A stretch of 64,000 nucleotides of DNA from Chrysomallon squamiferum (Eukaryota; Animalia; Mollusca). The stretch is taken from positions 6,448,001-6,512,000 of the forward strand of contig CM022679.1 of the NCBI GenBank assembly GCA_012295275.1. Reading direction: 5' to 3'. Positions 1,747 to 61,027 of the stretch are shown in pieces; positions within the stretch are counted from its first letter, which is position 1, and each line of letters opens with the position of its first letter. The position numbers and the translations under genes were made by a program. The notes beneath the pieces are model-generated. The model ran no database searches. It saw only the letters and a program-made list of their open reading frames with translations, and was not told the DNA's origin.

Positions 1747-1894
1747 AACCAGGAATCTGGAATGTCTGCAGTTAGTAGAGTTACTCAGGCTAATTTATTA
1801 ATTATAAAACAAAAAACAAACAAATAAATAATACATTATATTCGCCTTCAGAGCTGCTGGTGTCACATCCACTATCATCTGGAGAATCATTCAT
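276..1894 (-). CDS. ANKRD54: Ankyrin repeat domain-containing protein 54 (LIAR)-like, 5' part; 4 coding exons, continues off the left edge
   Basis: Exons 1835-1894 (MNDSPDDSGCDTSSSEGEYN), 1103-1313 (VQNFESPHFEFTHWSPEPP...NKIRPSCTHRKQRLKEFKCGKTTGRNIL), 891-938 (DDRKLRTAASENDYIQ) and 276-374 (VVELLESGVDPSGYDAKQRTALHFAASQGHQSI) join in frame through GT-AG introns with consistent phases 0,1,1,1. The N-terminal SSSEGE motif and RLR.AA..ND...V..LL..G.DP...D.K.RTALHFA match ANKRD54 as I recall it. Confidence 0.8.
1714..1745. repeat. (TG)n microsatellite
   Basis: Direct reading. Confidence 0.95.
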
Positions 1895-2269
1895 ACTCTT
1901 GCAGTGTAAAAAGGTTTGACGACTGCCGATTCATTTACACATCAATTTTCACTTTTTCTTTTACTAAAAGTTTTAGTACCAACATTGCATATTAGTATTT
2001 CAGCAGTTATCTTTTCTTGGACTCCTAGAATCATCCGAAAATTGGTGGGTTATTAATATTATTTTAACTTTTTTAAATTATTATTATTTTGGTGCGACAG
2101 TTCTCATTTTCAGATGTTATTAAAAAACAAACTATTTCATAGTCGTTTTTATTTTTAAATGCAATGCACCCTGAAACAGTAAATAAATATTCAGGTTCGT
2201 TATGATAGAAGGGTCACCCGGAAGTAGTGTACGTCTGCTAACTTTACTTTCAAAAATGTTATAATCATA
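1895..2269. promoter_or_regulatory. Putative bidirectional promoter shared by ANKRD54 and ALG1, with an ETS/GABPA motif CCGGAAGT at 2218-2225
   Basis: Divergent start codons are 375 bp apart. The region is locally CpG-enriched against a CpG-poor background and contains an exact CCGGAAGT motif. Confidence 0.65.
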
Positions 2270-5200: not shown

Positions 5201-7186
5201 CAAGCCTTCTACCAACCAGTATCCTAACCATTTTGATAATATACAGAATGGAAATACAGACCTATCTCTAAATTTGAAAAGCATAAATGAAATATATCAA
5301 ACTACATAAGTGTGCCTGTTGACTTACTCTTTCAAAGATTGTATTATGTGATTTTGTTTATGTGGGAAGGTGAGACTAAAATGTTTTTTACTTCTAACTG
5401 TTGTGTATAGTCCATAGTGTTTCTTCTCTTATTTCTCAATACACAAAATTACCTACATTTGACATGTAATGACCAATTGTTGTAAAATACTTTGCAATGC
5501 TGTCAAATATTCATTAATTACTTTAAGCATCTATCTCCGTTTACAGACATGTTCCATGTATTATTTTTAAATATAACCAATGGCATAATCAGTAATATTA
5601 CTAAATCATTTACTAATTACATCAAAGTGTACTAACTTTAAAAATTACATAAATGAAGCTTTTTGTTATTTATTTTTCTAATTTTGCAGAAGATGAAGAC
5701 TTTGGAATTCTTCTTGAAGCTTTGAGAAGTAGGTACATAGGCGGAGTTAAAGCTTTTTTCAATTATAATTAATATTATCATATTTCTGATTTAACATTAA
5801 TAATGTGTCTAATATACATCCTAATTTTAGTTCAAGAATGTTATAATTATGAATACTTTATGTTACATTTTAAAAAATTGCAGTAGCTGAAGAATTCTAA
5901 TAGTGTTGTGTTGTATTGTTTATTAGTAAAATAAATTAGTTTATTTAAAATATATTTTGCCTTTACTGCATGTTTTTTTGTTTAGTAACTCCATTAAGTG
6001 TTTACTTTTTCAACAATTTCAATTATGCTTTCTTGTTTTTTAGGAAATCTCTCTTTCACAGCTTTCATATGGCAGACACAGTTAAAGAACCACACTAAAG
6101 AAAAACTAATTTTATAAAAAAATATATGTTATTGTTTTTAGTTTATGAAAAGAATGTGTCATCATCAAGTGTCAGGTTACCTGATGTAATATGTGCAATA
6201 ACAGGTGAATATTTAACCAATCATATATTTATTAAAAATAAAAAACAAAAAATATCCAACCCAATCAGTTTTTTGTATTTTATATATAGAGGTAATTAAA
6301 GAAAACAATTGAAATAAGTTTTCTTTTTTTATGTAAAATCAAAAATTGAAACTAAACTTGTATTTACTAATTTTTTTGTGAATCAGTACTATAAAAAAAA
6401 TAAGAAGTTGACATTTAAATGATTTGTTTTTCCTTTCACATTACTAATAACCAGGTAAAGGTCCACAAAAACAACATTATGAAAAAGAGATAGAGAAGAT
6501 GAATTTCAAGCATGTCAACATTTGTTTGCCTTGGTTAACACCAGAAGATTATCCACAGCTTTTAGGTACATTTTAAACTGGTGGCTAATGTTGTAATTAT
6601 TTAGAAAATAACATCTTTTTCTTTTAAAGAAATTTATAAAAGATCACTGTTTCATTAGTTAGATGTAAACTTAATAATAAATAATTTATAATCCATCTTG
6701 TTTTCATAATTTTATTTGTTTGTTTGTTGTTGTTATACTGTTACAACTGTTGTCACATAAACTGAATATGGGTTGATGATTTATGCTGTCATAACAAGGT
6801 TAATTTTTAATTTATATATAAGGAAATAAAATTTATATTGTATTTTTCTACATGTCACTAAGCTTTATAATAATTTCCACTGGATTTAATCTTTCACAGT
6901 ATGTGCAGTAACATTTATAGTAAACATGTATTGAATTTTTTATTAAAAAAACAAAAAACAAATTTGTTTAAACATTTACAAACATGTACAAATTAATAAT
7001 AAATTGTGAACAAAGTGAAACTTTTGTTATAAATACATTTTAGGTTCTGCTGACCTTGGTGTTTGTTTACACAAATCTTCCAGTGGACTTGATCTGCCAA
7101 TGAAAGTAGTTGATATGTTTGGATGTGGACTCCCTGTTTGTGCTGTACACTTTGACTGGTTGCTTTTATTTCTATTTTGTTCATTA

Positions 7187-7217
<31 letters not shown>

Positions 7218-8478
7218 TATGTTCTATATCATTTAATTTTTAAATTTTTTAAATTTATTTATTTATTTATATATATATTTTTTGGTAATTAAAGTTATAT
7301 TACCTTTACATCAGTAGAATTTATATAAAATTTATAGTTTCAAAGATTGCTTTTTAGTTAAATAAAACTCATACTAATAGCTCATTTTATGACAAATACA
7401 TCAAACAGTGTAATTATATATTCATTTTTTTAGTATATCTGAGCTGGTGAAACATGAAGTGAATGGATTGATATTTTCAAGTAGTGAAGAACTGGCAAGC
7501 CAATTAGAGGTTACTATTTCATTTAGGAATTGGATGATCATAGGAAACTTGGTTTCCATAATAAGTTTTTATAACACAGAGAGACATAATTATGTTATCA
7601 GTCATCTTATAAATGTCTAAGTAAAACAACTTATTAATAGGATCATTAAATGGTTAAAAAACTGAAAACGAAAACGATATGCAAATAAAAGAATTAAAAA
7701 AATCCTGATGGAATAGTTTATGTCCTAGAAAGTATGGCTAATGAATAAAAATATTACGTTTTATTAACAATTACAATATATGGACATATTAAAAAAAAAA
7801 TTAAAAAAAAAATTAGGTAATAGCATTTTAATTAAAAATTATTATAAACCTAATTTCCCAATGATATCTTTGTATGGTTAAGAGTTGTCAAATAAGAAAC
7901 TGAGAAGTTCAGTTTAATATATTTTTTTCATATTATGTTAGAAAATAAATTTATTCCAGGTTGTATTAAATGTAAAACAGTTACTTCCTCCTTTGTTAAT
8001 ATGTAAAAAGTATAGTTTGAAGTTATTCAAAAGAACTGGAGTTTTTTTGTGTGTGTGTGTGGGTGTGGGTGTTTTATTCAGATTTAATAAAATAATTGTT
8101 TTTTTAACATCTTACATTATAGTACCAGAATTAATTCTATTCATAATGAGATTTTTTGAGATAATCATATTTTAATCCTAACAGAACAAATATTATAGTT
8201 AAATTGCCTCTTTTTACATATTAAAACTAACAATTAATAGTATTTAGTTTTATTTAAATTTATTCTTGTTAATGAAACATGTTAATCTTCATTGAATTTT
8301 TACTTTAACTAGAGAATTTGTCTGATTTCAGTGTCTGTTTCAAGACTTTCCATCAGATCAGAGAAAGTTGAAAAAGTTGCATTCTGGTGTGAAACAATTT
8401 CAGGAGATCAGGTGGCATGACCAATGGAAAAAACTGGTTTTACCTTTGTTTACCCATGAAAAACTGAAAAAAGATTGA
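2270..8478 (+). CDS. ALG1: Chitobiosyldiphosphodolichol beta-mannosyltransferase (GT33), complete, 13 exons
   Basis: Exons 2270-2468, 2605-2685, 3120-3223, 3700-3848, 4202-4291, 4586-4696, 4995-5098, 5690-5728, 6142-6204, 6455-6565, 7044-7158, 7434-7509, 8332-8478 splice in frame. There is an N-terminal hydrophobic anchor and ALG1 motifs [92 protein letters not shown] stop at 8476-8478. Confidence 0.96.
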
Positions 8479-35839: not shown

Positions 35840-38800
35840 TTTGCACCATATAGGTGTTCTAAATGATATACAAAATTATTTAAATGTTTTAGAATGCTGA
35901 TCACTAACCATCTAGTTTGTTGTATATGAAAGCCAGTTCTCCAGGAATTTCCAGATTGGCCACACTGGCAGCTTCTCTGGCTGCTTTCTCCTGCAAATAA
36001 ATAAATAAATATGTATAAAATAAATTGGTATATGCTTGTATGTACATATGTAAGGTGAGGATTGTGAGTGTGTATTCTTTCTGATTATATTAATTTTTAT
36101 GTTTGTATATATGTGTGTGTGTGTGTGTTTATGTATGTAATGAGAGAGAGTCAGTGTATACAGGCTTACAGTTTTAAGAACAAGACTATTAATTTTTAAA
36201 CAAATTGATCAAACCATGAATATGATAAGTATGTAACTGCACTAGGTATATTATATTATTATAATAACTACTATTAAAAACTAATTACAATAAAATCAAA
36301 ATATATATATATATTTCAAAGCTAGATTTCAAAACCCTTCTTACTTTATTTTCAAAAATCTGAACAACATAAAAAAGTAAGAATTTCCCTTCCATTAATT
36401 GGAAGCATTAATCAAGCACTAAGAATTAATTTTATTTATTTACTTATATAATTATTAACAAGTTTTAATAAAAGTGTTTTTATATTTAACATTAAAAATA
36501 TTACAACTCACTCTTTGTTCTCTCTCCATTTTTTCACGTTCTTCCTGTTTTCGTCTAGCTAATTTCTCAGCCTCAATTTGCTGCCGCATTTCTTCTCTTG
36601 CCTGCAAAGTAGTTTAAATAATGTAATGTAATATTCATAAAGCCTGATTAATTCTGTTTTCTTTTAAAAACATTCATAATAATAATAATAATAGATAAAA
36701 CAAACAAACAAATATAACACCACTGACTCAGAAATGGTCTAAGAACTGGATTTTAAAGTAAAACCTTTCTTAAAGAAAATTTAATTTAGTTTATTTATGC
36801 TAATGCAGATGCATTAGATGCAAAGGCCTAAATATATTTATACTATTCTTATTATATTTAATATAGATGTATACATATTGTTTAAAATACATTCAGTATA
36901 TTTACACATGTTAAATAATAATAATAAATAGATGGCAACACTTACAACCAGAAATCTGCGCCGCTGCATTCGCATGCGATGTTGAGCCTGAAGCAAGATG
37001 ATGCCATGACGAAGTACTTGAAACTGCCGTCTGTAACAATCAAAGACAAAATATATTTCTTCGCTGAGAAAATACACAACACATAGAGTACATTATCAAA
37101 GAAAGAGGACAAAAATCCAAAAAGCCCCAGGCAAGACAATCTAGTCAAACCAGACATTATAGGGAAAACATTCTAGGCTGCTGTTATTTAGAAAACAAAT
37201 CCTCATAAACATTCTTTCAAATTACTGAGATACTGTAATAGACATAAACAGTATTAAACACAGATATACATACACATAGACATATACACACAGACACATG
37301 TACATATGTGCATTGTTTTAAATATTAAATATACACACATTCATACCAAGAACTTATTTACCCAGTTGTGTGACTTGATAGAATGTGAAAGATAACCATC
37401 AGAGAGATATATTTGTTTTGACATATGAAAGCTAATTTACATTACAGATTCAAGTGCAAAAAGATAAACCAAGTAAGTGGTTCCTTGATAAAAGTTCTAT
37501 TCCTACTAATAAAAATAAAAGGAATCATAAGCCTAGAAATTCTTAATTATTTAAGTAAATATCATATACATTGGTAAAATTGTCTTTGTTGAAAGGTGTC
37601 TGGATAACAGTTGCATATTAATGTTATTTTATTGAAAGGTGCCAGTTAATTATAGTTATTTCATCTACTGATTTGATATTAAATGATAATGAGATGTCAA
37701 AAAGTAGGTGCATATTAACAAAGATGAATTATTTACACATTTCAGAAATAATGTAACATGCAACTAAATAAAAACAGGGATAATTATGACTCATTTCTTG
37801 TTTTGTAATGTGTTAAATCAAATAACAGCTCTATGATATGGATACTGTGTTAAACAGAGGTCACAATGTGTGTGTATATATAATATTGTTTTTGTTTTTA
37901 ATTTATAATATTTTTTAGATGAAACTGTAATTGAACAATTGCTTAACAACATCTAATCATACGTAATATTAACAGTTATCTTGTGCAAGAAATACCCTGT
38001 AAAAATCATATGAAATATGAAATCCACAGCCATCCATCACTCAATGGGCAGTTCTTATCAGCTAGCAGTAAAAAGGTCTTTATATGCACCTTCCCCCAGC
38101 TAGGAATACAATTCACTGGCTTTTCTTAAACAACTCACAGTGAGATGAGATGAGATGAGAAATGGCAAACAGGCAGCCTGAGGACTGACCCTCTGACCCA
38201 CAAAGACAAATGTGTCATTTAGAAATGTCTTACAATTATGTGTGAAGCATCATTTCAAACAATGAACTCAGTCAACAATTTTTTATATTTTTTATATTAA
38301 TTCTTTAACTATGAACACATACATCAGGACAAATATTACTGTAGAAGTTAAAGGATTTAAAAATGAAACAATGTACAGTTTTCTCATGGTCCTTTCTGTT
38401 TAGAGGGTAGTAAGAGAAGTAATGTTGTAAGAGAAGTACTTATAAAACTTTAACAGTTCACTCCATTTATTCAATGTCATTGTAGACTATGAATGCATAT
38501 GTAATACCAGATAACATACTGTGGTTTAATTTGTTTCTTAGTTTGATATTTTTTTCATTATACCAATAATAAACAGATTAAATAGATTAAAAACAAACAA
38601 ACAAAAAATACAAAAAAAAAAAAACCCACCTGATTCAAACACACCACACTAATAAAGATATACACAATAAAACAGAAACAAGATAAATTACAAAAATAAA
38701 AAATGTCTAACTACATACATTTTTAATAGTGTAGTCTTATATTTTGTGACAAACACACACACTTCATTTAATAAGATTTAAAAAGATATTTCAAAGTGTC

Positions 38801-41800
38801 TTTGTATTTTACTCCCTTGAAAACATCTTTTTTTTCTTCCTCTTTTATCCTTGACTTTTTTTACTTGATACATATTATAAATAGATTACCAAGTTTTTTT
38901 CAAAATTTCTTTTGACTGTTATGTTAGAATACAAGCTAAACCTTCAAAACATACAAAGCTGTGTGTATTATAATAAATTGTATGTGTTAATAGTAGCACA
39001 TAATAATAGCCCTTTGCTACCTTTAAGAAACACTCATACACACTTTTATACATGCATTCAGACATACACATAAATATATTCACACACACACACATACACT
39101 TGCACAAAACATAAACTTATAGAAGCACAGATAAACACAGATAAACTGTTAGAAGCATATCAATTTTCTATGTCAAACAGTTATTACCAGGCAACACTAA
39201 ATAATAAACTTTACATGAATCATTTCAGTACAATTCAAAATATGTGTTAATGAAAACCTATACCAACATTCACATGTGTGGCTCTTAAGCAAAGTAAACC
39301 AAATAAAATAACGAGATTTTCTAAAATTGTTAAATTAATGAAGTTACAGGCCAAGTGCTTAAACATAAAATTTATTTGATGTTTGTGGTATGAAGTTTTA
39401 AACCGATGGTTTCAGGGCAACAATCTAAACAGGCATTAAAGAAAATTTATTTGCAGTTTCACCCATCTTTCACTGTTTTATAGAATGAAAGTGATTTGTA
39501 AAGACTGAAACAGCAAGGTACACCTTTATTAAACCATAGCAAGGGTTTAAATCCTAAATCTTGATGCAAAATAAAATGTAGACTGTGACATAAAGTAATG
39601 GTGTTTAAAATACAGTAAAAATGTAATGAAGAGATACAAGATAAATAAATACATTATGAGGGTTTGGTATTTAAGCTGTGTTATTATTACTATAGGCTAC
39701 AAGGCTAAACCTTGATATTTCTTATTAAGATATTATGTAATTAAATTAAATTTCAAGGTCACAGACTAGAATCATATTTTATGTGTATTTTAAGTAGAGA
39801 TATAAAACAGGGTTAGACAGTGATATCTTATGAAAACTAATTAGTGAATATATTTTTTATTAATCTGTATAATGTAATCCAAGCAATGAAAAGCCAATAT
39901 ACTTGAACTTTGTAAATTATATAAACATCAACCAATAAAAAGTAATAAAGTGCATACTTAATCAAATTAGTGTGTTTAGATAAATAATTAAACTCCATGT
40001 TTTAATCTTTATTCTTGTTTTCTTGTTTTTCAAAGGTACTAAGTTAAATCTTACAATATTTAATACTTCAAGGCTACATTATATTTAATTTAATTTCAGA
40101 AAATAACAAATAATTGTAATGAAAATCAATAAAATCAATAATTTATTATTATTTTATTTTTTGAAAAAGGTTTATATAAATGCAAATTGACTTCAGTGAA
40201 TTTTACTAACATATTTAACTATTAAGTAATTTGTGAACTCAATACAGATGTAATAAACAGATACATACATTTAATAATGTATTCAGATGTTGTCTTAGTC
40301 TTCTAAAGCTGGAAGCCTCCAGGCATAATATCCACCCAAAATAATTTAGCTTTACAAAGTTAACCACAGGGTAAATTCAGATAACAGAACAGACATACTA
40401 AAACTAACTTATAATATGTGCAGGTAGAAATACTATTGAGAGCAACTGAGGTAGCAAGCAAGACACAAAAGCTCAGCATACAAGTGTGATATATAATAGT
40501 GGCATATAAAGTTTCATATTTTCTGATGCATATAGTATGTTACTTCCTAGTTGAGCAAGTTGAAATATAAACAAGTTCATACTATTGACACCTTTAGCCA
40601 TTCAACAGTACTCATTTCATAAGTTTATAAATTACTGGCTTATTATCAAGATGAGTAACTTAAAATTGTTAGCTAGCTTTTGCATAAAAATTAAGAAAAT
40701 ACATACATTTTTTTTTACTTAGTTGGTTGTAATGTGTTTGTATAGAGGAAGATAAATTGCAAGAGTAGGTTCAGACTGTGTGGAATGCAAATGAGTTTCA
40801 TCTTCTCTTGAAATCTGGGTACCTTAATCATTGGCTGTTACATGTAACATATTTGTTACAGCTGTTCAGCATCAGTGAAGAAAATGGTGGATATTAGATG
40901 GCAGTTAATTATAGTAGTGCATATTTTACTAAAAGTTTAGGCATATTCCAATTAAAAGTATGTCTGCTTTTCTTGCACATGTACCAATCACAAAAACTAA
41001 ACTTACATAATGAAGGATTTTCTCATTTTAACTAGGCTTTGTATATTTTTTATATGTTTTTTAATAGGATTTTCTCATTTTAACTAGGCTTTGTATATTT
41101 TTTATATGTTTTTTAATATTAAGTCTTTATAACATAATTTAATTATGATCTAAAATTGGATGACATTATTTTAATAGTATGACTTGAAATAAGACTTATT
41201 TGGTGTACATTTCAACCGAGAGACCCTTGAAAATACCTCTCAACCAAAATCAGTATACACAATATATGCAGTTATAATTATTACATGATTAGCAAAACAA
41301 AAGAATTACGTGATTATCATTGTTCAAAACAGATTTGGCTTACACAACAGATTAATCTAAATAATATTTTTATTTTTACCTTTCAGTCTGTAATTATAAT
41401 TTCATGGTTGATATATTTAAGAGAAAACTCTGGCAAGCCAAACCAGTTTAACTAAAGATTGATGATCTGATGTGACATTTATACGTGTCCTCGTCCTGTA
41501 GGTTAAGTTTATTCATGAATTAGAAAAATCCTGCATGTAATACTAGAGCTATGCTACAACAAGATATTGAGATTGGAATTTTTGTTTTAGCTTGGGACTC
41601 AGATAGGGTGGATGCATTTAGCAGAGATACTCAGAATACTGGGTTATTGGGTTTTCATATCGTGACTGTTTGCACAATAAACAAAGTACTGAAATAGCAA
41701 AACAAAAAATGTAATAGTAAAGTACAGTAACTTGATGACTTTTCTATTCGTCATGTTTCCATAACTGTTTTTGTTGTTGTGGACACTCCTAAAATTCTGG

Positions 41801-42763
41801 TAACAAAAGGTGAACTGGTTATGCTTGGGGTTATTTTTCACTTTCCCCCCCAAACACATAAATTTAGTTCAAACTTGTATTTAATTAATAATGTTTGACT
41901 GTACTCGGTTGGGTAAGACTTATGGTTGTAACAGTAACACTATGAAAATAAACCAATGAAGAGAACAAAAATTATTAAAGAAACAGTGAAAAATTCCTTC
42001 ATATAAATTACACTCCATGCTTATGTGATAATTATATCTCATACTTGAGACTGTTATATTTTAATTATATTACATCAATATTATATCTCATAATTGTAAT
42101 ATATACAATAGAAAATACAGAATTAAAGCACACCTACCTCTGATATTCAACTGTATAATATGTAATTGTCACATGATTGTCAATGTAGTGATAAATAATT
42201 ACACACACACACACAGACATATATATATAATTGTTAAAGACTGTTATTTAATTATTTATCACTACATAGACAATCATGTGACAATTACATATTATACAGT
42301 TGAATATCAGAGGTAGGTGTGCTTTAATTCTGTATTTTCATATTTCAAGTATTTCCATGACAGGGTTATTTACAGAACTTTGCTCAAAAGAAAATTAATA
42401 AGAAGACTTACCCCACCTCTTAACAATGTACAGAAGTCATCCTAAACAAAATCCAATGTCTAGTCCACTAATACTATCAGATAAAGGTTGTAAGTAGCAG
42501 TGCATTTTGATGCATTGTTAATCTGACACACTTGTATGTATAGTTAATTATCTATCAATTGTATAAACCATCTGTGTGATGTATCAGCTGGTTATATCAA
42601 ACATTATTTTTTTTATCAGTATCAGTTCATATCCAATATCAGTCACTCACTGATATTTTTCCCCTGTTTTATTTAATTAATTAATGAATTTATTTTTTTT
42701 TTTTTATCACTTTTAATTTATCATTTTTAATTCTATCTTTTACGTCGAGTACTACTCATAATA

Positions 42764-42832
<69 letters not shown>

Positions 42833-43452
42833 ACTAATAAATAATTTAAAACGTTGATGACTTTGTCAAAATTTTAACATTGCACAGATAACAGAATTGA
42901 TAAATGAAAGTTCAGTTATCAAAGTCTATATCCAACACTTAAGAAATAATAATTTGCCCTCATTTTTATTAAAAACAACAATTTAATATTTTTATATATC
43001 TTATAATCACTATAAACAGAGGCAAGATATGATGACTAGATAAATTTCTGTGTTTTTGGTCAATAACTATTTTCATTTCAATAAGTTATATATATTGTTC
43101 AAAGTTACTTCTTCAGTAGTTAATTGCTGGTTAAGATCTCAAAAGACTGTTCTGAAAAAAAATTGTATTTACAATATAATTAATAAATTGTTATTTAAGA
43201 ACTATTTGGCTTTGATATTTTTGTAGGTAAAAATGAAATCAATAAATATGAATTTACTACTGTAGAAAGCATTTAATTTAATTTAGTTTTTGTATTATAG
43301 GATTATGGGATAAAAGAAATAACTGATTATTGTCTTAAAATAACACCTTTATCCTGATTAGGTTAAATAGTGAAGACAGCTCAAAAGGGCCTCACTGCAT
43401 TCAGTCATTCTAACCTTCCCAGGATACAGCTCATATATAAAGACCTTAGCTA

Positions 43453-43485
<33 letters not shown>

Positions 43486-46400
43486 TGATTTAAATATAAG
43501 AAGGACATAAGTGAATAAATATTTACTATATTTTCAGCAAAATAAATAAATATCAATATAACGAGATACTAAATAACTATAAAATAATAAAATGTGAATA
43601 TCAAAAAATAAAATAATAAATTAATAATAAAAATATTGTTATTGTTTTTTTTAAACATTAATTTATTTATAATTTCATTTCAATATTTGTTAATAATTTA
43701 TAACGTGTTTATTTTAATTTATAAAAACTTTAAATCACTTTATTAAAAAAATGTTTTAGTATTTTTATATGTATTACTGTTTTATTATTGTTTTTAGGAA
43801 ATAGTTCTAGGAAATAGTATAATTAAAATCAGTGATTAAAATAATAATTTAAAAACCGTTTTAAAAAGTCCAATAATTAGCATAACACACCAAATAATTT
43901 GTCCTGACTTTTTAAAATTTATGTAAATATTTCTATGTTTTGTTAATAATTTGTCAAATATTGTTTATTTATGATGATCAAGTGTTTATTTATTTATAAC
44001 ATTCTGCTATCTACTATCATATGTTATCACTGACATTGTTAGATAACTGGCTTAGTGATCTGTACACAATAAATATTTATTTCTTGCAGAATAGTTTTTA
44101 TGGATTACAATCTTTATTTGAATGCATTGCTTTAGCAACATGCCACACCCTGTTAATAAACACAATAAGTTCAAATGAATGACTAAGTAAATACACATGA
44201 GCTATAAATATTTTTTAATTTGAAAGAGTTTATTTTAAGCAAAATATTTCTGTTCACATGATTTTAATATCAAACTATAATAAAATCTGATTCTGTAAAA
44301 ATAATTAAAAATTCCAACTTCCAGCCTTACTTTACAAGTTTTAAAACAATGTAAAAAAAGCAACACACACACACATTTATAAATTTTACTATTAAGTCAA
44401 CCTGAATACATTTTGGCTGCATTTTCTTCTTAATTAAAAGTTCTTTTATACTGTCTGCTTATTAACAGTTTGTTTAAATTTATTATTAATAATAATTCTA
44501 CTGCTCTGACAAAACTCTGTCTGCTTAATAACAATTCCATTATATTGACTATTAACAACTTTTGTTTCATAACTAATTTAGAAACTTTTCCTTCTGAAAT
44601 ATTTTGCTACACTATTAATAAAATGTTCATTACATCTGCTAGATAAAAATGTTTTACTACAGAAACAGTTATTTTATGTCTTTGAAGGAATGAGGGTAGC
44701 CTAAAGCAAAGAAACTATTAAAATATTCCAACATGTGTCATCTCAGTGGAACCTACAATCTGATATGCAACATTTGTGCTTTGTGATTTCATGCTCTGAT
44801 AGAGTAAAGATGTGACAGCACTTAATCCATTGTTAAAGCTGCTGAATATCTGGAAGCAGTTTATTTATTGTTATAAACTTTCATATATTTAGCAACCAAA
44901 AACCATAAAATGATGGGATCAATTTAAGTAGTTGTTCAAATTCATAACTAACTTTGATTTACATGAATATTCTTTAGTGTTTGTGAACTGTATTAATACA
45001 TTAAGTTGCTGGATGTACAGAATACACAGAAATGTCAACGGAAGTTTTAAGCTAGCAGACAATATATATTTTTGTGTTTTTTTAAATTGTTTAAATCCAG
45101 TGATAACTTTGGTTTTCTTAGATGTTGTTTGATATATGCGAATTAAAATATTTCATGATTTACTTTTAATATTAAAACACTTTATTTATTATTTTGTGTG
45201 AAAAAAAAAAAAGTACTGTAACAGTACTGACATTCATTCAAAATATAAAACTTAGCCATGAAAAAAAACTGGATCAAAATAAATCAGGTTTTAGTTTGAA
45301 CCAAATTTTGTCTTCAACCAACAAAATAAAACCAAAATTTTTTAAATCAAGACTTACCTTCATATCAGTTAACCAGAATACTGTCAAGCAACAAAGAATG
45401 TTATTTCCACAATGAAAACTGAAACTCCATAACATTTCAAACTCTAAAACATAACTCAGTACAAACACATACACTATGTGATAAATAAAATACACAAAAT
45501 CATTCATCAAATAAAATATGATTATTAACAGTCTAAATGTAAATATCACTATTTCTGATCCAGTAAACAAAATGCACCATTTCAGGTCATACACTGCAGT
45601 TTTGTTATTATTCAATTTCTCCTGTTTGTGACTATTATGTATACTGAGATTGGCGGCTGTTTTCAATTCACAGCTTGTGAAATGTCTTATTGATTTACAG
45701 TCATTCTATCTTACTGAATTTCACAAACATAAAAAAAAATAAATTGAATGGTACCAGGTGTTTTGATGACTGTACGGTTAAAAATATTTTATTATTTTGT
45801 TGATATGACATATATTTGGAGGAAACCTGAGGAGCAAAATCTTATTGATATAATTATTATGATTAAAGAAAGAAGTAATTATTTCCTTTTATTATTCTGC
45901 ATGCTCAAGTATTTGTTTTTCTTTAAAAAATAAAACAATAAAGCCTTTTTGTGTTTAGTATGAACCTCATTTTACTAAATAGTATTATTATTTGTATAAA
46001 ATCTTTTTTAAATTTTGAATATTTTAAACAGACAGATAAGCAAACAATATTTTATTACTGTGTCTATCAAAGAAAAAAAAAATGTCATGATCTTTATACT
46101 TTCAATTAGTTTTTCAAGTCACTGTGATTTAACAAACACCCCTCCCACACACACATATACACATACAAACAGACATAAAAGCAGATGTCTGTATACCCAC
46201 CAATAAAAACAGTACATACAGAGATATATAGAGAGATAGAAAGAAAGAGGGAGGTTATTTTCTACTTTTTGGGGGGAGAAATTTCTGGTACAAGGTGACA
46301 CACAAAATTTACTTGTACTGCTGGGATCAGATCAAGTTTCACCTACAACTTTAACCCTGCCATTGTAATAAGCAAAAGGCAGGTTTATGTGTTTACATAC

Positions 46401-46894
46401 AACTATTACATTTTTTTGTTGAAATTTAAGTCAAAACCTTTTTAGAGCTTATGTGATTTATGCACAACAGAAATACCATGTGTAAAATTATCTTAAATAT
46501 CTAAAACATTAAACAAAACCATTTCAGTATATTTACATTATACTGATTCTACCATCCCATTAACTTTATTATAGTGGGTCACTACTATTATGTTATTAAT
46601 AAGAAAAAAAAAATAATATGGTTATAATTTGAATCACTGTGTCAGGAAAAATCATTACTGGTTGAAAGTCATGCTAATTTATTCTGAAATAATTTGTATT
46701 AGTATTGATTAATAAATATTATTATTATATTTTTAAAGTCAATTTCTGAAATTATTCTAAAAAAATAAGAAATATATTAAATCTCACCTTTGATGTAATA
46801 TAATCATATTTAAAAATAAAATATCTATGTAATGCTAAAGCTTACCTTTTGATGTATGTTTCAATTTAAAAAAAATATAATCATGTTCTTGTGT

Positions 46895-46961
<67 letters not shown>

Positions 46962-49900
46962 ATCCTGCAATCACATTATGTAGTGGCAAAATAAGATGAT
47001 GAGATGAATTTCTATATTTTCAGGTCCTGACCAAACATAAGCTTTTTGGGACAGAACTGCATTTACTAAAAAAAATACTTGTTATTGACATATTGCTCTA
47101 AGTTCCATCTTTTGGATTCAACTGGTGATTTAAATCTTAAAAGACCATTTTGAAAAAAACAAATAAACTGTTGTTATTTAATTGCAGAATAAAAGAAGTA
47201 ACTGGTTACTGTCTTAAGCTATCAGCTTTATTCAACTTAGGTGGTATGGCTCATTGCAGCTTGGCTGAATCAGCCCTTTCTTTCCTTCACAGAATTTAAC
47301 TATCTTAAGACAGTAACCAGTTATTCTCAGAATATATTAGTGACTTAAAAGTTATCATATTGTTCCAAAAAAAATTAAATCTTACCTTTTGATATATCTT
47401 CTGAAAGCTGTTTGGATTGTGATGTTTGACTTGCACACTTTGAGAAATCTCTTTCGAGCAAGAAATGTCCGCATGGATTTCTGAATCCGGATGACAGCAT
47501 CAAGCTGGATTTTCAGAGCTTGTCTATCAAGATGTTGCTCAAAATTCTCTTTCATGAACACCTGAGGAGAAACATTGTCATAGTTTTGAAATTCAGATTC
47601 AGAGAGAGAATAATCCGTTGGTGGAAGAAAAGAAGAGTAAGAGTCTGAGTCAGACTGCAGGTCAAGGTCACTGTATGAGTGTTGCTGTCTGAGAGCTAGC
47701 TGAATGGAATTTAGATACTTCTGGACCGTTTCCTTCGTATTTGGTTTTTCATGGCTGATGTTGAACTGCATGTACCCTAGTCTTCTCTTCATTGTGATAT
47801 ATTTATTTCATTTTTTACTTTGAAATTTACCTTTAATATTTATAGAGACTTGTTTAATTATCTTTTACTGGCTAATTTATTACTTATTTCATCTTAATGT
47901 AAAATGCTCATGCAGACAGAAACCAAAACAAATATATTATTTTCTTTGGTTATAACAGACTTTGATATGTTAGTAATTGAAAAAAAAAAAAAAAAAAAAA
48001 AAAATTCAATGAAATAATAAATGTGGAAAAACGATGCAGTAATATTATAATTTATTTTTCAAATTTTGTTAAGGTTTCAGTGATAATTATTTATTTTCCA
48101 TCACAGTTTTTATTTCTGAGTGACAATTTGGTAAAAAAAAAGTTGTATTTAATAAAATTATAAAGATTTTCCTAACAAAAGACCTATTAAACTATTAGAT
48201 ATAAATGTAATTATTATAATATAGTTAATTATGTAATCCTTTATGGCAACCATCTTAGATAACATATAAATTTTTATTCCTTTGTTTTATCTCATTATAG
48301 AAAGAGAAAGAAAGGAATTAAGAGTGAAAAATAGCTATTCGATAATTACTTCAAGCAAATAAAGTTAATGTTTTTGACTAGGATTATAAATAGGCAATTT
48401 AATATCAGTTTGTCTTTCAACAGCAATATAGAACACAGACTTTTATATCTACTCCCAGAAAATATATCTCATTTTTTGAGAAACTAAATTTGACAGTATT
48501 AATATCTATTTTGCAGCCAGTGATGAACCACAACATCAGTGGGTTTTTATATAAAGAAAAAAAAAATTAACCAAATAAGCATCCCAGAAAACAAATTATC
48601 CTAGAGTAATATATTTCAGGTGGAACCAAAACTAATTTAAATTATAATTTCTCAGTCTTAGAAGTGCTTCATCTTTCTGCAGCAATATGAAGATGGAAAA
48701 CTGAGCAAAAATGAATTAACTCCAAATTCCTCCTGGAATACATTAAATTAAATAATATGAATGTTAAATTGTCACCAGTAATATCTCTTTGTTTCCAAAC
48801 ACAAAACAAGATTCAAAACAAGAAGCAGAGAAAATGAATAATCCAACTAAAACACAAATGATAAAGAGAATTTCCTATGAATACTTCAGCCAATTGGACA
48901 AATAGTTGTATGTTAAAATCCTTCTCAGAAAGAATGAGAAACACACAGGTTAAAACTTGGTAGGTGGTGACAAGACAATGGTTTCATCTGACATGTAGAG
49001 ATACATATGTAGTCTTTCATAGTTTTTACTGCAAGTCATTCATCATAGTTCAGACAAGACTAAACCATAAATATATTTCACTTTTTACAAAGTGACAGCA
49101 TTTCCCTGCTCTCAGATTTCTATTCTCCAAGAAAAAAAAAGTTTTAAAAGCTGTAAAATATTTCCATTACAGCAAAATGTTATTCATTTACTGTATAAAA
49201 AATATTTAATTAAAGTTTTGTCACTTTTAAATAAAATATAGTTTTTGAAATTCAGCAGTTTTCAACCAATTAACCTGTCTTGTTTCTGAAGTCCTGTCAA
49301 CATTTGTGTTTGTGTGGACAAACTGGAGGGCCATCCTTCAAATGAACCTGCATTTTTGTCATGTGAACAGTTTAATGTACATTATATTTGGGACTACAAC
49401 AACTGTAGCATGATTAATTTATTTTGTTAACAAAGGTCAAATGTCATTGTTGTAACTAGACAGAAAGTTGACTGTTCTATTCCATACAGGTAATATTTAC
49501 ACTCAAACAAATCTAAAAAAACAGAAATGTCCTCTCTGGTTTGTTTTTTTTTGAAGAAAAAAATGTAAATAATTCTAACATTTTATTCAGATCTTATTAA
49601 GCAGTTGTTTAAGTTCAGTAAATAGAGATTTTGAACAGATTAATATGAAAGCAAAACGGAATAAAATAAAGATTACAAATATTTGTATTTGAGTTCCGGA
49701 ATTCTGCAGACTGTTCTTTGTTATTGTAAATAAGTGAGAAATATAAAGAATTCAGTGAAATAATTTTAATATTTAATTTCATTAAAAATGTCATTAGAAT
49801 CATTCCTGTAGTCATTATCATAACTATTAAAGTCTTAATTTCATCATCACCATTGTTATATTTTTATAAATATAATTTCATGTTATTATTAGCATTATCA

Positions 49901-52575
49901 TTATCATTTTTTTCTTTAGTGCAAAAATGCCTTACTTTTATATATTAAAAGAAATATAAACTTGAATTATAAAGATAGCTTAGCATAATGCTTTGTTTAA
50001 CAAAAAATTAAATACATATATTTTAATTTGGTACTGTTAAATGAGCAAAATATTAGGTTTTATTTATGACAGGGTATTTTAACTTCTTAAAAATAATTCA
50101 ATGTATTAGAATATCATGGATTTATTATTAGTACTATTATTATTATTTTAATTTCTTTGATGATTAAACTAAAATTTTTAATAATTTTATGAATGTTACT
50201 TAAAAACAAATTATTATTAGTACTTATTTCATTGTTGTTGTTGTTGTTATCATTATTTAGCTTTTAATGTTATGATTCATTTATATTTATATATTTTTTT
50301 AATGACACCCCAACACAAAAATAAAATCTGGCTATCAAGTTTCATTGAAATGTAAATAAAAGATATTAATTTTAAAATAAGTTAGAGTAAATTGTTGAGG
50401 TGTAATACTCATATAATACATTGAAAAATAAATATTATTATCTCTGATACTTTTACAATTTCATATAAAATGCAGTAACTTTTAAACAATTTAAAAACAG
50501 ATGTGGATGAAATCTAAACATTATTATTACAGTTTCTCACTGGTTTTATGTCCAGACAATACACCAAAATGTGAGATACTGTCAAGAAACATTGACAGCT
50601 ACCATAATGAGGTGGGAGATCCTTTTTCAAAATAAAAATATTCATTAAATAAGTATGACCAATAGGAGAACAACACAAGACAACTTCATCCTTCCTTGAC
50701 TGTTTGTAAATTAGTTTCCCCAAACTGGCTTTTCCAGTCACCTTTGCCAGTCAGAGATACTATTTTTATTAATACTTTGTTTAAAATCCATGTATGGGAC
50801 AACCATACTAGCATGATGCAAATTCAAAGCAGCCTTAGCGGGTAGGTTTGGATATTCATTGCCCATAATACCAACATCACTGGATAATACTTCTGAAAGC
50901 AACTGAAGTGGCAATCAAGATACAAAAGCTCATAATACAAGTGATATATAATATTGGTATATAAAGTTTCATATTCTCTGATGCATTTAGTGTGTTACTT
51001 CCTAGTTGAGCAAATTGAAATATAAACAAGTTCATACTATTGACACCTTTAGCCATTCAACAGTACTCATTTCATAAGTTTATAAATTACTGGCTTATTA
51101 TCAAGATGAATAACATAAAATTGTTACCTAGCTTCTGCATAAAAATTAAGAAAATAAATGTTTTATTAAACTGCATACATTAAATTTTAATAAGTTTATG
51201 AATGTTACTTAAAAACAAATAAGTACGACCAATATGAGAACAACACAAGACAACTTCATTCTTCGACTGTCTGAAGGTCAGTTTCCCAAAACTGGATTGT
51301 TGTAGTCACCTTGCCAATCAGAGATAATATTTTTTATTAATACTTTGATTAAAATCCATGTAAGGGACAACCTTAGTAGCATGATGCAAATTCAAAGAGC
51401 CTTAGCAGGTAGGTTTGGATATTCATAGCCCATACTACCAATATGACTGAGTAGCCAACAAAAACAAGCTTTTTAGATGCCAAAAAAGATATGGTTTTGT
51501 ATCACCTTCCCAGTTAAGTCAGGTTCCAGCTTCAAACTGCATAAAGTTTTGAGGATATATAAAAGTAAGTCTGTATAAATAATAAATCTGAATATATCTG
51601 AATGCTTAATTCTTTCCAGGGTTTCAGTAATTGCCTGTATTTCAGCAGTGAAAACTGATACTGAATCAGGCAGTCTCTTACAAATTGTTTCAGATGGGAA
51701 CACTGTAACAGAAGAATTATATGTATCTGTATCTGTATCTATATACATATTTATTTATTTATTTGGGAATTTTTGACAGGATGTTTCTTTGTATTTATAC
51801 AGTTTGCTGAACATTTTTTTCTGAAAACTGTATTATTATTATTATTATGATTCCATTATTAATGAATACATTGTCAGTTATACATATAAAAATATTTTAT
51901 CTCAATACCAACAGAAAAAAACTATCAAAACTCACACGTAACAGAGCTAAATTTAACTAAAAGCATGCTGATCAAAATATTGTTTTTTAATTGACACTTT
52001 TGATGTAAGTAAACCAAAACAATGTGTAATAATGAAACTATGCGACAGTTCATAAATATGCTATGAATTCTGACTGTCAACAGAATGTGTGAATGACATT
52101 TACCTTAATATGCTGCTTTTTTTTGTTTTGGTGTTAGGAAGGTAGATTATATGTCTATGATTTGTTCATTTTTTCCTAAAATTCTAAGACTCTTTAATAT
52201 TTAATTATTTTTTGTATCCTTAATATTAAAGAAAGGTTATTTAGAATTCTAGTTTTCTTCATTAATTTTACAGAGGTATAAATAATAAATATTTAGTATC
52301 TGATTTTGTTTAAAATCCTATAAATCAATATATTATAGTATTTCTAATTTTATTTAATGCTACAATTTTTCAGCATTCAATCTTAAATCCTTCTTTTCAG
52401 TTGGATATTTAGATCTAAATTTTTCAGATTTATTAAAACTTTAAATATGAGTGTTAGTTTGAAAAAAAAACCACACTCAACACTTTCAGTTTTTAATCCC
52501 ATAAATCACATATTCTGGGAATTTTAAAGTTAAAAAACCTTTTTTTTTCAAAATCAATCTGTGTGTGTGTGTGTT

Positions 52576-52619
<44 letters not shown>

Positions 52620-55600
52620 AATATATAGATTTTTGAAAAAAAAAAAATGTATTTGTTGGATTAGATGTGAAATTCTAGGTTTTGGAACTAGTTTTAGCTA
52701 AAAGTCACTTTACCATTATTTTATGTAACTTGAATCCAACACAATAAATTGTTTTTCAGAATGTAAACATTCACAATGAAAAATATGAATGTGGTCATAC
52801 TGTAAGCTCTACATCTAAAGCAACTGACAGGAATATTCAATGAAATTAATACAGAGACTGAATATGTTGTTTCACAAGGAAACTGAACTCTTCAGAAGCA
52901 TATCAGGCTTTGACTAATGAAAATGAAGTGAAAACATTTTAAAATTCAATGAACTTTTATACTTGATGTGTATTTCTTTACTGAGCATAAGAGAAATTAT
53001 TCCATTAATCAACAAATTCAAAACAAAATTTAGATTTTCATTACCTTTGTGGCTCCTATCTGGTATTGATCAGCAAACTCTGGACCCTGAGTTTCCAGGA
53101 TTTTAGAGCACACTTCAGATGGTAATGTAGAAGGTGAGATGATGAATTTCCTAGCCAGACACCGATATCTGTCAAAATGAAACAAAAAAAAGTATCATTT
53201 ACATGGAAATGGTCAGTTATGTACAGATTTGTGATTGGGTGGATAGGTTGCTGGTTAAAATGATGGAGGACAAGAATGAAGCACAGTCTGGTCAACAGAT
53301 GAAACAAATTAATTATTGGGAGTAAGTGAATAAATTAATTAATAAATTAACAGATAACAAAATGAATGGAATGGTGGATGCATGGCCACAACAATTACTG
53401 TTGACAGATGGATATATTAATAAAAACATATGAACTAATTGAAAGGAACTACAAAATGTGCTGGACTTAAATAAAGCACATCTGTAAAGATGTTTCCTGC
53501 AATAAACTGACCTGTCAATGAAGTGAGGAAACTTGATTCTGACAGGATACCCCATCTTGCGTATTCTGATGGTCTCCAGCATCCCACTGTATCTGAGCTG
53601 ATCGTGAACCACATCATCCTCAAACAACATCGCTGTCTTGCTGGAATTAGGCTTGATGCATCTCACAAAGTATGGATTACATCTGCAGTAAGATATATTC
53701 AGTGATGAAGTATCTTTGTTACTGAATATTTTAATCATTTATTTAATTACATTAATTATAAATTTGTAATAATAGTTAATGACAGTAGTAATAGTAAAAG
53801 GGGCTGTAACCATGGGTTTTAAAATCATCTACTACTATTATTACAGCTAAATCTTACAACAACACCTTACAGCTACTACAATTATTCCTTGTAGTACTGT
53901 TACTCCAACTACAATGACTACTAACACTGTTATTATCACCACCTCTACTACTACCTCTATCACTATTCCCACCATTACTACTATCACTACCACTACCACT
54001 ACTAATTCCATCAGAACTTCCATCACTTCTGATACAACAAACAGAAAGCTCACCGTGACATGGTGTCAATGAGAGACAGAAGAGATTCAGTGAAGCTGGC
54101 AGCCACTGTAGGTTTCTGTGGTTTTAGAGTCACATAGCGACCAGTTGTCTTACTCAGAGTCTTTGTAATCAGTCTGTCCCTCATGTCCTTAAACATCTGA
54201 GATATCATCTGAAAAAGGCAAAACAAACAAATGTTTAATTAAAAAAAAGGATTGTTGAATGTTTAATGGGATATTCCTGATTTAAAAAAACCCTGTTATC
54301 TATGGTCTTTTAAAGATGATTATATTTTCAAAACATTAATATCTGGTTTTTAGGTTGGAAATATTTGTTTTCTTTGATCTTAAGAACTAGTGGAGGAAAA
54401 ATGATGAATGATTGAATGATTTATTGAATGAATTTCAGCAACTGTAGGTCTCAAGTGCATGTTTCTCTCTTCTACAATTTATTATAATTATAGTAATTAC
54501 AACAACAACAACAACAACAATAAATACCTTATTTATTTATTAATAAAAATAACAGTAATTACAGATGCAATAATAAAACAAAAGCTTTAATAACAAAAAT
54601 ACCTTGTTTTTGCTTTCACACAACAGCTCCACAACATCACTTCTCAAAGTGTCTTTGTTTTTCTCCAGGAAATGGTTCACCTGAAATCAAAATCATTATA
54701 AATAATATATTACGAGATTATATAAAATTCCTGTATATTTTATAAGGAAAAAAACAAAAATTAAGAAAAATGACAGAACAAGCCTGAAATGACACCTGAA
54801 TGCTTTGAGAAAAAGATTTATTTTTAAATAAAAAGAAATGTGTATTTAAATAATTTATAACAAAAGATATTATATTAAAACAATTAATATTTGAAAATAT
54901 TTAAATAACAGACATACGTTATATTTAATCTTTCCAGCATAATGCAGGATACAGAACTCGGGGTCTGACATCCGTGGTTTGCTGTACAAACTGTTTTGAT
55001 GATGGTGGTAGTGACATTTCTCCAGGAAAGAGGAATCTGTTGACTGTAAAAAAATAAAATAAAATAAATAAATAAATAAACTAATTATATAATGTGTACT
55101 GGTAATTTAAAAATAAATATTTTAAAATGGTTTTTTAAAACATTTTTTTTTAAATTTGTATAATGATCATTCTTATACACTGCACACACATCACTGTTTA
55201 TTTCAAAACAATGTTTGGAGTATTTGTTTTCATAATGATTCTAACAAAGAATATGTATATGGAGATTTCTGTTAAATAAGATTAATATACTGAACACCTA
55301 TGCAGTTTTCAGGAAAGTAATATAAAGAAGTGCATTTCTGTTAAACATTTATGTAAGTGATAAAAACAGATTTGATTTCGGTTCAAAGTTCAAATAAGTA
55401 ATGTTAACAGAAAGGATTTGCAAAATTTAGATAAATGAGGTTAATAAATAATGGAAGTTTTGAAATTCAATTAAGTTATGTTATCAAAACACTTTTTCAA
55501 ATAATGTTCAGGAAATTATACAGAGGGATTTTACCTGTGGAAAGTTGCACTCATCATCAAGAATGTGAAGGATTCCTGCAGGTTTGGTTGCTATCAGGTC

Positions 55601-58620: not shown

Positions 58621-61027
58621 GATGTATGCAATTAAAATAATTTTTGGAATAAAAACACTTTTAATTAATTTGTTTTTATTTTTGTTTTTATCTTTTTGAT
58701 TTTAATTTTAATTAATTTAATTTTTATTTTTATTATTATTTTTCTTAATTTAATTTACTTTATTTTACTTTTATTTTTATATTTCATTTTAAGTTATTTT
58801 ATTTTAGATTTATTTAATTTTAAATTATTTTATTTTATTTTTAATTTTTATTTCTTTCTATAAGTTTCATTTGTTATTTTTTATTTTGTTTATAAATTTA
58901 ATTTATATTTCATTTTATTTATTTTATTTGATTATTTATTAATTTGATTTGATTTAATTCAATTTAATTTAATTTTTATTTAATTTAATTTTAATTTAAT
59001 TTATTCTATTTTATTTAAATTTTCAGTTTTATTTTAATATTTTATTTAATAATTATTTTTATTTGAAAAAGATTTAATTTTAATTATTTCATTTTATTAT
59101 TACTTTTATTTTAACTTTTTATTTTTATTTTTATTTTTACTATTTTATTGTTTTTGTTTTTTTATTTCATTTTTATTTGTTGCTTTGTTAATTGTTTTAG
59201 ATTTAATTTTTAGATTTTTAATTTACTTTATCATTATTATTTTTATTTTAATTAATATTTATATATATATTTTATTTCATTCTGTATATTTCATTTAATT
59301 TGTCTTTTTAATTTTTTTTAAATTTCATTTTGTTTATAGATATAGATATATATTTATTTTATTTTAATTTATTTTATTTTAATTTTTTTTATTCATTTAT
59401 TATTATATATTTTTATTTCATTTTTTAATGTTTCAGTTTATTTTAATTTATTTTAATTCCATTTACCTTTTAGAGTAGACCCATCAATTATAAAGTAAAT
59501 CAATGGAGAGAAAATAGTTTACCTGAGTTACTATCCTAGACTTCTCCAGTAAATACTCCATAGTTCTGGCACCAACTATAGAACCTCTGTATCAAAAATC
59601 AAACAGTTATATTAACATTTATATATAAACACATGTGAAGTACATCAAGACATATCATTTTAAATTAAATTAAAACACTTCCGAAAGATACATTTATTTG
59701 TGTGTTTGTATTTTATTGAATATAGACTAGCCATTTCAAATAAACATATGGATACACAGAGCAAGCTAAAAGTCTGACAAGAATGAGTCAAGGTAAATAT
59801 ATTATTGTTATTGATTATCACCTCATCATCATAATGATCACAATCATCATCATAATCATCACAATCATCATAATTAAATTAGTGTTTAAAAAACAAACTT
59901 ACTTCTTGAAGAAAACTTCAATGTATTTCCCAAATCGACTTGAATTGTCATTGCGAATTGTTTTGGCATTTCCAAATGATTCTAGAAGAGGATTTGCCTC
60001 TAAAATCTGTTCTGTGATGAGGTTGTTACCAGATTTGTTCACTGCTGCCAGGTACTGCATCACCAGCTTGGTGCTTTCTGTCTTACCGGCACCACTTTCC
60101 CCACTGGCAAATTAAATATTAGATATATTGTGATATTCTTTTTTCTTTTTGTACATTTATGTCTGATGTTAAATATATCATATTTTTAGTTCATGAATTT
60201 TGTATTTAGCAATGCTTTATTAAGCTTATGTATGTTTTTTTAAAATTATTATCCATTTTTAATAATTTATATTGTATGTGTCTGGGTTTGTGCATGTTTG
60301 TGTGTGTGTGTGTGTGCGTGTCTCTCTCTCTCTCTCTGAATGGCTGTGCATAAATCCATTTGACTATGATAATATATTAAACTATTGTTATTGTCTGACA
60401 TATTTTATGCAAAGAAATTTCTCTCTCTCTATTTTTTTTTTAATATTTCTATTTTTTTTAAATAATATTTTATATTACTTCACTTTACTTTAATTTACTT
60501 TTATATAATTATATTATATATACTTTTTAATATGCAATACTTAGTTATAAACAGCATACATATACAACATTTGCTTGTCACAGATATTATTTATTTTCAT
60601 GGTAGTAACAACATGTTATTATTTCAAAGTCTTAATTTAATATTTTTATTTTATATAAATTTGATAATGAAAAGAAAATAAAGAAAAATAACTAAGCAAA
60701 AGTAAGAAAGAAAGAAAGAAAAAAAGAAAAGAAAAACTTCAAATATCTGTAACCCAGTAGAATAGAATAATTAGTCATAAACTTCAAAAATGACATTTTT
60801 CTGGTATGATGCCAAATACCACCAACTATTTTTAACAAGTGTGTACCTTCCTTCTCATTTAATTCACTAAATAAAATAAAAAAATAATAATAATAAAAAA
60901 AAGAACAGTTAGACATTACATTCTAACCTATTAAACTTTTTTCTTTTTAAAAATAATAAATACAACAAAGAAATTCCATGACAGCATTAAAGTTTAATTT
61001 ACTGTAAGATAAAATAAAGGAAGCTTG

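Follow-up and report, generated by a model that had tools for sequence, protein, structure and literature searches.

This locus raises the question of whether a single exon of the myosin XV gene of Chrysomallon squamiferum serves two kinds of transcript, as an internal exon of the full-length motor and as the first exon of a second product from which the motor is missing. Class XV myosins build and remodel actin protrusions in settings such as hair-cell stereocilia, fly bristles and synapses. Myosin genes with a headless product (Myo10, catchin/myorod) are already established, as are hybrid exons. The feature at issue is an extended exon at 47386-47792 on the minus strand of the window, the whole 64,000-nucleotide stretch that was analysed. 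It is coding-like and partly conserved, and it most likely represents an unannotated headless isoform of myosin XV.

The myosin XV gene fills most of the window and runs on the minus strand from about 63.3 kb to about 13.3 kb. Its class assignment was set by domain order together with best matches, with the Pfam domains taken from a homolog (P0190); the order of motor, IQ, MyTH4, SH3 and second MyTH4-FERM was found, and the best matches are to class XV proteins. Among 11 mollusc proteins compared, the best match is the myosin-XV-like protein of Gigantopelta aegis (P0190), with 77% identity over the aligned segments, while the remainder show 56-62% identity. Mapping of P0190 onto the window by tblastn yielded 55 exon segments and 54 junctions, of which 49 are reliable; the other five (5/54) lie in poorly conserved parts and were left out of the statistics.

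Within this map, the canonical internal exon at 47386-47561 encodes the end of the converter and the first IQ motif and would be common to both isoforms. A 5,483-nt intron of the full-length transcript (47562-53044), the predicted site of an internal promoter, separates it from the last motor exon upstream (53045-53168), which would be missing from the headless form. On its 3' side a 10,355-nt intron (37031-47385) leads to the tail exons (13346-37030), which the headless form would retain and which carry further IQ motifs, MyTH4, a FERM-like region, a Gln/Pro-rich region, SH3, MyTH4 and FERM, according to the tblastn map against P0190 and the Pfam domains of P0190 and of a Lottia protein, P0006. 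All of these features are on the minus strand. As the initial annotation had stated, the two introns flanking the proposed hybrid exon are the longest among the 54 junctions of the window; the median intron of the 49 reliable junctions is 394 nt. All motor exons lie from 53045 upward, so the predicted leader reading frame would lack the nucleotide- and actin-binding core and keep the tail.

The leader itself (47562-47792, minus strand) begins with an ATG at 47792-47790 that has A at -3 and is preceded by an in-frame TGA at 47810-47808. It continues for 77 codons in frame with the converter exon, and its last codon, CAG, is the canonical splice acceptor, such that the frame reads through the acceptor AG (47563-47562) into the exon at 47561-47386. 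The initial annotation had described this 77-codon frame, its start context and its exon-like GC content, and each of these was confirmed, the letters being as given. More specifically, the frame 5' of acceptor 47562 is open for 82 codons, compared with at most 47 (median 10) at the 48 other reliable acceptors, and among 27,676 intron positions only 78 (0.3%) are preceded by 81 or more open codons. The leader has 41% GC and 44% GC3, where exons have 42% and 43%, respectively, and introns 24% GC; one of the 583 intronic windows of 231 nt reaches its GC content, and the 151 nt above the leader ATG have a GC content of 20%. The codon log-odds of the leader is 0.39 bits per codon, where 29 exons of 30 or more codons have a mean of 0.53 and a minimum of 0.23. 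None of 136 intronic open runs of 50 or more codons scores as high as 0.39 bits per codon, the best reaching 0.15. The leader statistics exceed chance, and the step in GC coincides with the ATG.

The description of the leader as Ser-rich holds only modestly, as 13 of its 77 residues (17%) are Ser; ten of these fall within residues 39-66, which form a Ser/Asp-rich stretch. Residues 39-67 contain five matches to [ST]xx[DE], which we take to be a phosphorylation-site motif, and these are candidate phosphorylation sites. No Pfam family was found on the leader. AlphaFold, run with a 5-sequence alignment, predicts that the leader is disordered except for one helix at residues 19-39 (pLDDT approximately 60-70) and that a long lever helix (77-134) follows it. 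Above the ATG, the candidate 5' UTR (47793-47943, minus strand) contains a TATAAA (47844-47839), a donor-like site after 47831 and two Met-Lys-stop uORFs (47892, 47811), all of which are candidate elements read from the letters alone.

A search with the 135-residue reading frame of the leader and converter exon returned 40 proteins, including XP_009062087.1 of Lottia gigantea (P0006, LOTGIDRAFT_229291). This protein of 2,204 aa has no motor domain and carries a 188-residue leader joined at Q|VFMKE, the same point as in the window. The window leader aligns to the first 70 residues of P0006, and both alignments begin one or two residues after the Met. The alignment score of 66 (shuffle mean 29.4) was reached by none of 1000 shuffles and by none of 805 unrelated control windows, and BLASTP of the leader against P0006 gave 13/34 identical residues with an E value of 6e-4. 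The two leaders share the block EKP...E.VQKYLNS, of which the conserved VQKYL sits, in the predicted structure, inside the sole helix of the leader (19-39). The leader, which had been proposed to be unique, is not confined to this species. Although short, the match lies at the same place relative to both start codons, and a non-coding intron would be unlikely to have kept it between these gastropod lineages.

The Lottia model is the only one among 156 long myosin XV proteins with a converter to show a headless start at Q|VF. No listed RefSeq isoform from Gigantopelta (5), from oysters, scallops and clams or from a chiton is headless at Q|VF or uses the leader. Furthermore, P0006 may be a gene-finder split, because Patella has a motor joined at that point. 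Several other mollusc proteins were considered and set aside. The 2,190-2,270-aa isoforms of Patella, Ostrea, Crassostrea, Liolophura and Dreissena were rejected as headless forms on the presence of a P-loop and motor. Models without a P-loop from Pecten, Mercenaria and a barnacle begin inside the motor and contain motor sequence up to the converter; these were read as truncated and were not counted. The motor-bearing proteins of approximately 2,190-2,270 aa (P0178, P0185, P0213, P0217, P0244, P0249, P0268 and P0274) are about 500 residues below full length.

Leaders at the same acceptor are also found in seven mollusc-like genomic ORFs among the 40 matches, all in frame, with lengths of 104, 118, 177, 260, 353 (cut at its start), 417 and 925 residues. 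Six of the seven begin with Met, the other being incomplete at its start, and all end in Q before VF[ML]KE. The ORFs terminate at the end of the converter exon, as is characteristic of genomic DNA that is read, without splicing, across the two splice sites. Their converter parts have best matches in oysters, clams and scallops, P0011 being identical to C. virginica and P0012 ambiguous. The leaders align within the pairs P0005-P0011, P0005-P0012 and P0010-P0013 (0/1000 shuffles each). The window leader is weakly similar to those of P0005 and P0012 (2/1000 and 3/1000 shuffles, respectively), and its alignment to the other five was not significant by the same shuffling. These seven long leaders are a biased sample, because gene callers favour long ORFs; other genomic ORFs among the 40 matches, including two that are caenogastropod-like, have extensions of 2-49 residues only. 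A motif, [NDE]-x0-2-[VI]-x-[KR]-[YW], occurs in 8 of 9 leaders with shuffle rates of 1-17% each, and the leader that lacks it is the one cut at its start; as this motif was defined after inspecting the leaders, it is a lead and not a test.

Wider searches were made for further leaders. A metagenome scan produced one confirmed locus (L001, 44% identity) from 227 pattern matches, and this has a short extension and no long leader. The 77-residue leader alone gave no match among 73 candidates of 238-2,000 aa, a ceiling that places a headless protein of about 2,200 aa outside the scope of that search. An alignment-based search for further leaders returned only two of its own members, and the ESM Atlas gave IQ-type clusters only, under 0.9, which are leads at most.

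Motor-less models also exist in Biomphalaria (LOC106054111), in which approximately 1,700 novel residues are joined at the same boundary. This leader ends in R, and it probably derives from a separate exon or exons. In the cluster from Biomphalaria glabrata and B. pfeifferi (P0062, P0170, P0171, P0172, P0173), none of the six members has a motor, and five have a novel N-terminus at the converter boundary, of approximately 1,700 residues in four and 323 in one. These snails may thus have one myosin XV gene whose products are largely or exclusively headless. The Elysia model P0124 has a long non-motor N-terminus as well.

Such models bear on whether the leader is truly a start. It might instead be entered via an alternative 3' splice site or from a further upstream exon, as a coding insert or as part of a longer first exon; in that case the motor would be made with its converter disrupted, or a headless form would start elsewhere. 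The leader contains in-frame CAG codons at 47768, 47723, 47702, 47687 and 47657, and the one at 47702 has 10 pyrimidines in the 15 upstream positions, equal to the canonical site. The old C. gigas model P0205 has 75 residues homologous to the P0011 (C. virginica-type) leader and splices the motor into the middle of it via an internal acceptor, and the Biomphalaria models suggest that the boundary can be reached from a separate exon ending in R. However, the splice from exon 53045 to an internal CAG that the initial annotation had named as the mark of an alternative site was not seen, no such joint or loose end being among those listed in four RNA runs, and in one of these (X1) the contig over the leader is unspliced past the ATG up to 47943. 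In addition, the Lottia homology and the GC step both begin at the Met. An insert at TK|VF would, from established myosin structure, split the converter. Entry by splicing is consequently judged quite unlikely, and the leader is better read as the start of a headless product.

The RNA data come from four runs (X1-X4) of one study, in the form of unstranded contigs that do not mark transcript starts; the stretch is also present in one run of unrecorded kind. The canonical exon 47386-47561 is covered by spliced contigs in all four runs and is used internally, with junctions on both sides. In X3 a contig splices exon 53045 to 47561 (a loose end), and in X2 a 7,126-nt contig has 2,373 nt upstream of the canonical exon, showing that the full-length motor is also made by the same gene. 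The splice across the 10,355-nt intron is present in X1, X2 and X3. The transcript cover upstream of 47562 that the initial annotation had called for is present in X1, at 229/229 leader bases, and in X2, at 198/229, and is absent from X3 and X4, which have the canonical form only. The X1 tail contig (4,805 nt) starts at 47563, runs into the tail exons and has exactly two incoming contigs. One is of 978 nt at depth 7.6 and is presumed canonical; the other is of 410 nt (47943-47534) at depth 5.2 and contains, with no mismatch, the whole leader and the 151 nt above its ATG. The bin depths of X1 leave no room for a third. The piece in X2 (47595-47892, depth 4.1) is unjoined to the exon, and the candidate 5' UTR lies under the X1 contig and partly under this piece. 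A loose end of X1 at 47937 was discarded as a chance match of about 21 nt, its letters being absent from the window.

Two features of intronic RNA in these runs pull in different directions. Ordinary intronic pieces have depths of 2.3-9.6, and the leader contigs are therefore no higher than background. The listed intronic cover downstream versus upstream of the exon is at least 0.44 versus at least 0, at least 0.27 versus at least 0.10 and at least 0.61 versus at least 0.12 in three runs, and this excess of downstream cover in 3/3 runs agrees with additional initiation between the two sides. From this count, the pieces at 50941-51156 and 51067-51503 were excluded as repeat copies with 5-10 mismatches. 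The depths of tail and motor contigs (77 versus 7.6 in X1; 281 versus 17 in X3) were not taken as a measure of expression, since the parts of a gene cannot be ranked by the depth of their contigs. Taken as a whole, the RNA evidence is consistent with the headless reading but weak, and the proposal of a headless isoform has gained its independent support from conservation, in Lottia and in the bivalve-like leaders.

The background depth invites a second explanation, in which the leader RNA is nascent pre-mRNA, DNA carry-over or oligo-dT capture at an A25 tract, and the reading frame is an untranslated relic or a product of chance. The X1 leader contig stops 37 nt before this plus-strand tract (47980-48004), beside a masked stretch (47969-48017); in a control stretch, plus-strand A37 and A24 tracts adjoin exons and are masked. 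The absence of the leader from two of the four runs and from the RefSeq models listed agrees with such an origin. Left unexplained by it are the exon-like GC3 and codon use, the latter unequalled in the intronic controls, as well as the Lottia N-terminal homology and the long bivalve-like leaders, and X1 has unique cover at 0/4,607 bases in the rest of the upstream intron. Background RNA over a meaningless frame is thus an unlikely account. The donor-like AAG|GTAAAT at 47831 allows a further variant, in which the internal promoter is real but its first exon is cut off after 47831 and joined by splicing to 47561, with the start at the Met of VFMKE and the leader unused. No 47831-47561 joint was seen, however; the X1 and X2 contigs are unspliced across the site, and a coding-like, conserved leader would be left unexplained, which makes this variant very improbable.

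With these alternatives weighed, it is probable that exon 47386-47792 is a hybrid first/internal exon yielding an IQ-plus-tail headless myosin XV that is real and translated. Full-length transcripts would splice into the hybrid exon at 47561, and the internal promoter predicted in the 5.5-kb intron, at or above approximately 47940, would start the second transcript; the start is not pinned, as the TATAAA lies inside the RNA-covered stretch. The two Met-Lys-stop uORFs would stand before translation start at the leader ATG. The predicted product, of about 2,200 residues (a length taken from the Gigantopelta tail), would consist of the 77-residue leader, a converter stub, the IQ lever and the whole MyTH4-FERM/SH3/MyTH4-FERM tail. 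With the P-loop and every motor exon (53045 and further upstream) missing, it would be unable to move along actin.

How the isoform would act is less certain than its existence. By analogy, the headless form might bind the cargo and light chains of the full motor and hold them, such that delivery would be tuned down or localised. The behaviour of headless Myo10 and of motor-dead fly Myo15 favours a cargo-holding competitor or anchor of this kind. The conserved leader helix, as modelled with its VQKYL block, may be a docking site that positions the headless form, and the adjoining Ser/Asp stretch could act as a phosphorylation switch.

The RNA also contains a second loose end in X3, at the acceptor of exon 37030. 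Its letters, resolved from a mixed consensus, align only with the two arms of an inverted repeat (91 bp, 99%; 42111-42201 and 42249-42339) on the minus strand and finish exactly at a GT donor at 42137-42136 (donor after 42138); no other copy of the 42111-42339 hairpin was found within the window. The loose end points to a second alternative upstream exon within the 10.4-kb intron, the product of which would be motor-less and without the converter and first IQ; cryptic splicing of nascent RNA could also account for it. A broader scheme would join these elements, with a hybrid exon ancestral to gastropods and bivalves, leaders ranging from 77 to more than 900 residues, a helix motif docking a conserved partner and a second start near 42.1 kb, and with tail-only products as perhaps a major output of the gene. 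This scheme is offered tentatively and with rather less than even confidence.

Headless Myo10, on which the cited work reportedly includes that of Raines (2012), resembles the predicted mollusc form in that a MyTH4-FERM myosin gene yields, beside its motor, a motor-less product with the tail retained. The mouse form starts downstream of most motor exons (exon 20), keeps the tail, localises to the membrane and is proposed to be a negative regulator or competitor of the full motor (PMC6345916). Myo10 is, however, of class X and vertebrate, while in the mollusc the start would lie in intronic sequence that extends the converter exon in frame and contributes a novel, partly conserved leader of 77 residues. 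Furthermore, protein and function are established for Myo10, whereas the mollusc form is predicted from sequence and contigs.

For class XV itself, the view that there is no motor-less isoform, to which the initial annotation leaned, calls for some qualification. Drosophila Myo15 (Myo10A/Sisyphus) has a short PE/RE isoform beside three large ones, seen by the most C-terminal antibody only (PMC12237259), from which we infer that PE has no motor. PE begins far down the tail and is without an epitope located around residue 2107, so that both the IQ lever and the first MyTH4-FERM module would be missing from it; the mollusc form, in the same class, would keep both. A second fly study reports that the first MyTH4-FERM module of Myo15 is required for the full Mical effect and that the motor-dead protein acts as if dominant negative, plausibly through its tail holding Mical (PMC8115926).

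Catchin/myorod is a molluscan myosin-gene product in which the motor is replaced by a unique, phosphorylated N-terminal domain (PMC4410989). It is, however, a myosin II rod of thick filaments without a MyTH4/FERM tail, and the tail encoded in the window is MyTH4/FERM/SH3 with no myosin II coiled-coil rod. Hybrid exons that are internal in one isoform and first in another, with longer flanking introns, were described by Fiszbein et al. (PMC8769537). Those were identified in human transcriptomes from junction reads, whereas first-exon use in the mollusc is only suggested, by contigs, and the mollusc extension differs in that it is coding and would remove the whole catalytic domain.

Automatic annotation has already produced motor-less models at the same boundary, in Lottia LOTGIDRAFT_229291 and Biomphalaria LOC106054111, and the literature search found no paper describing either as an isoform. 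Nor did that search, which took in few subscription journals and no supplements, find an IQ-plus-whole-tail class XV isoform or this mollusc exon described. The myosin rod protein of Drosophila is a parallel, and no paper on it was found in the same literature.

A naturally occurring protein with the lever and all cargo domains but without a motor would act as an intrinsic competitor or anchor for the cargo of the motor, an effect that engineered motor-dead mutants have so far mimicked in this class. The arrangement seems to recur, unannotated, in limpets and bivalves. If the hybrid exon dates to the gastropod-bivalve split, mollusc annotations miss a conserved isoform. The short conserved leader motif is a handle for a partner search, and oysters or limpets are accessible material.

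Several other features of the window were observed. In the upstream long intron, the repeats at 50647-50882 and 51217-51449 resemble each other at 87%; in addition, 276 nt beginning at about 50886 correspond at 92% to 40429-40704, so that repeats are shared across the long introns. A motor-domain intron (58659-59455) contains approximately 800 nt of extremely AT-rich, degenerate short repeats. At about 1800-7240 on the plus strand, exon-like open frames belong to another gene, convergent with the myosin gene. No Pfam match was found for two fragments of this gene, and the frames resemble what is presumably an ALG1-type mannosyltransferase. Lastly, Pfam places an ankyrin repeat (Ank_4, E 6e-5) in an exon at 220-417 on the minus strand.
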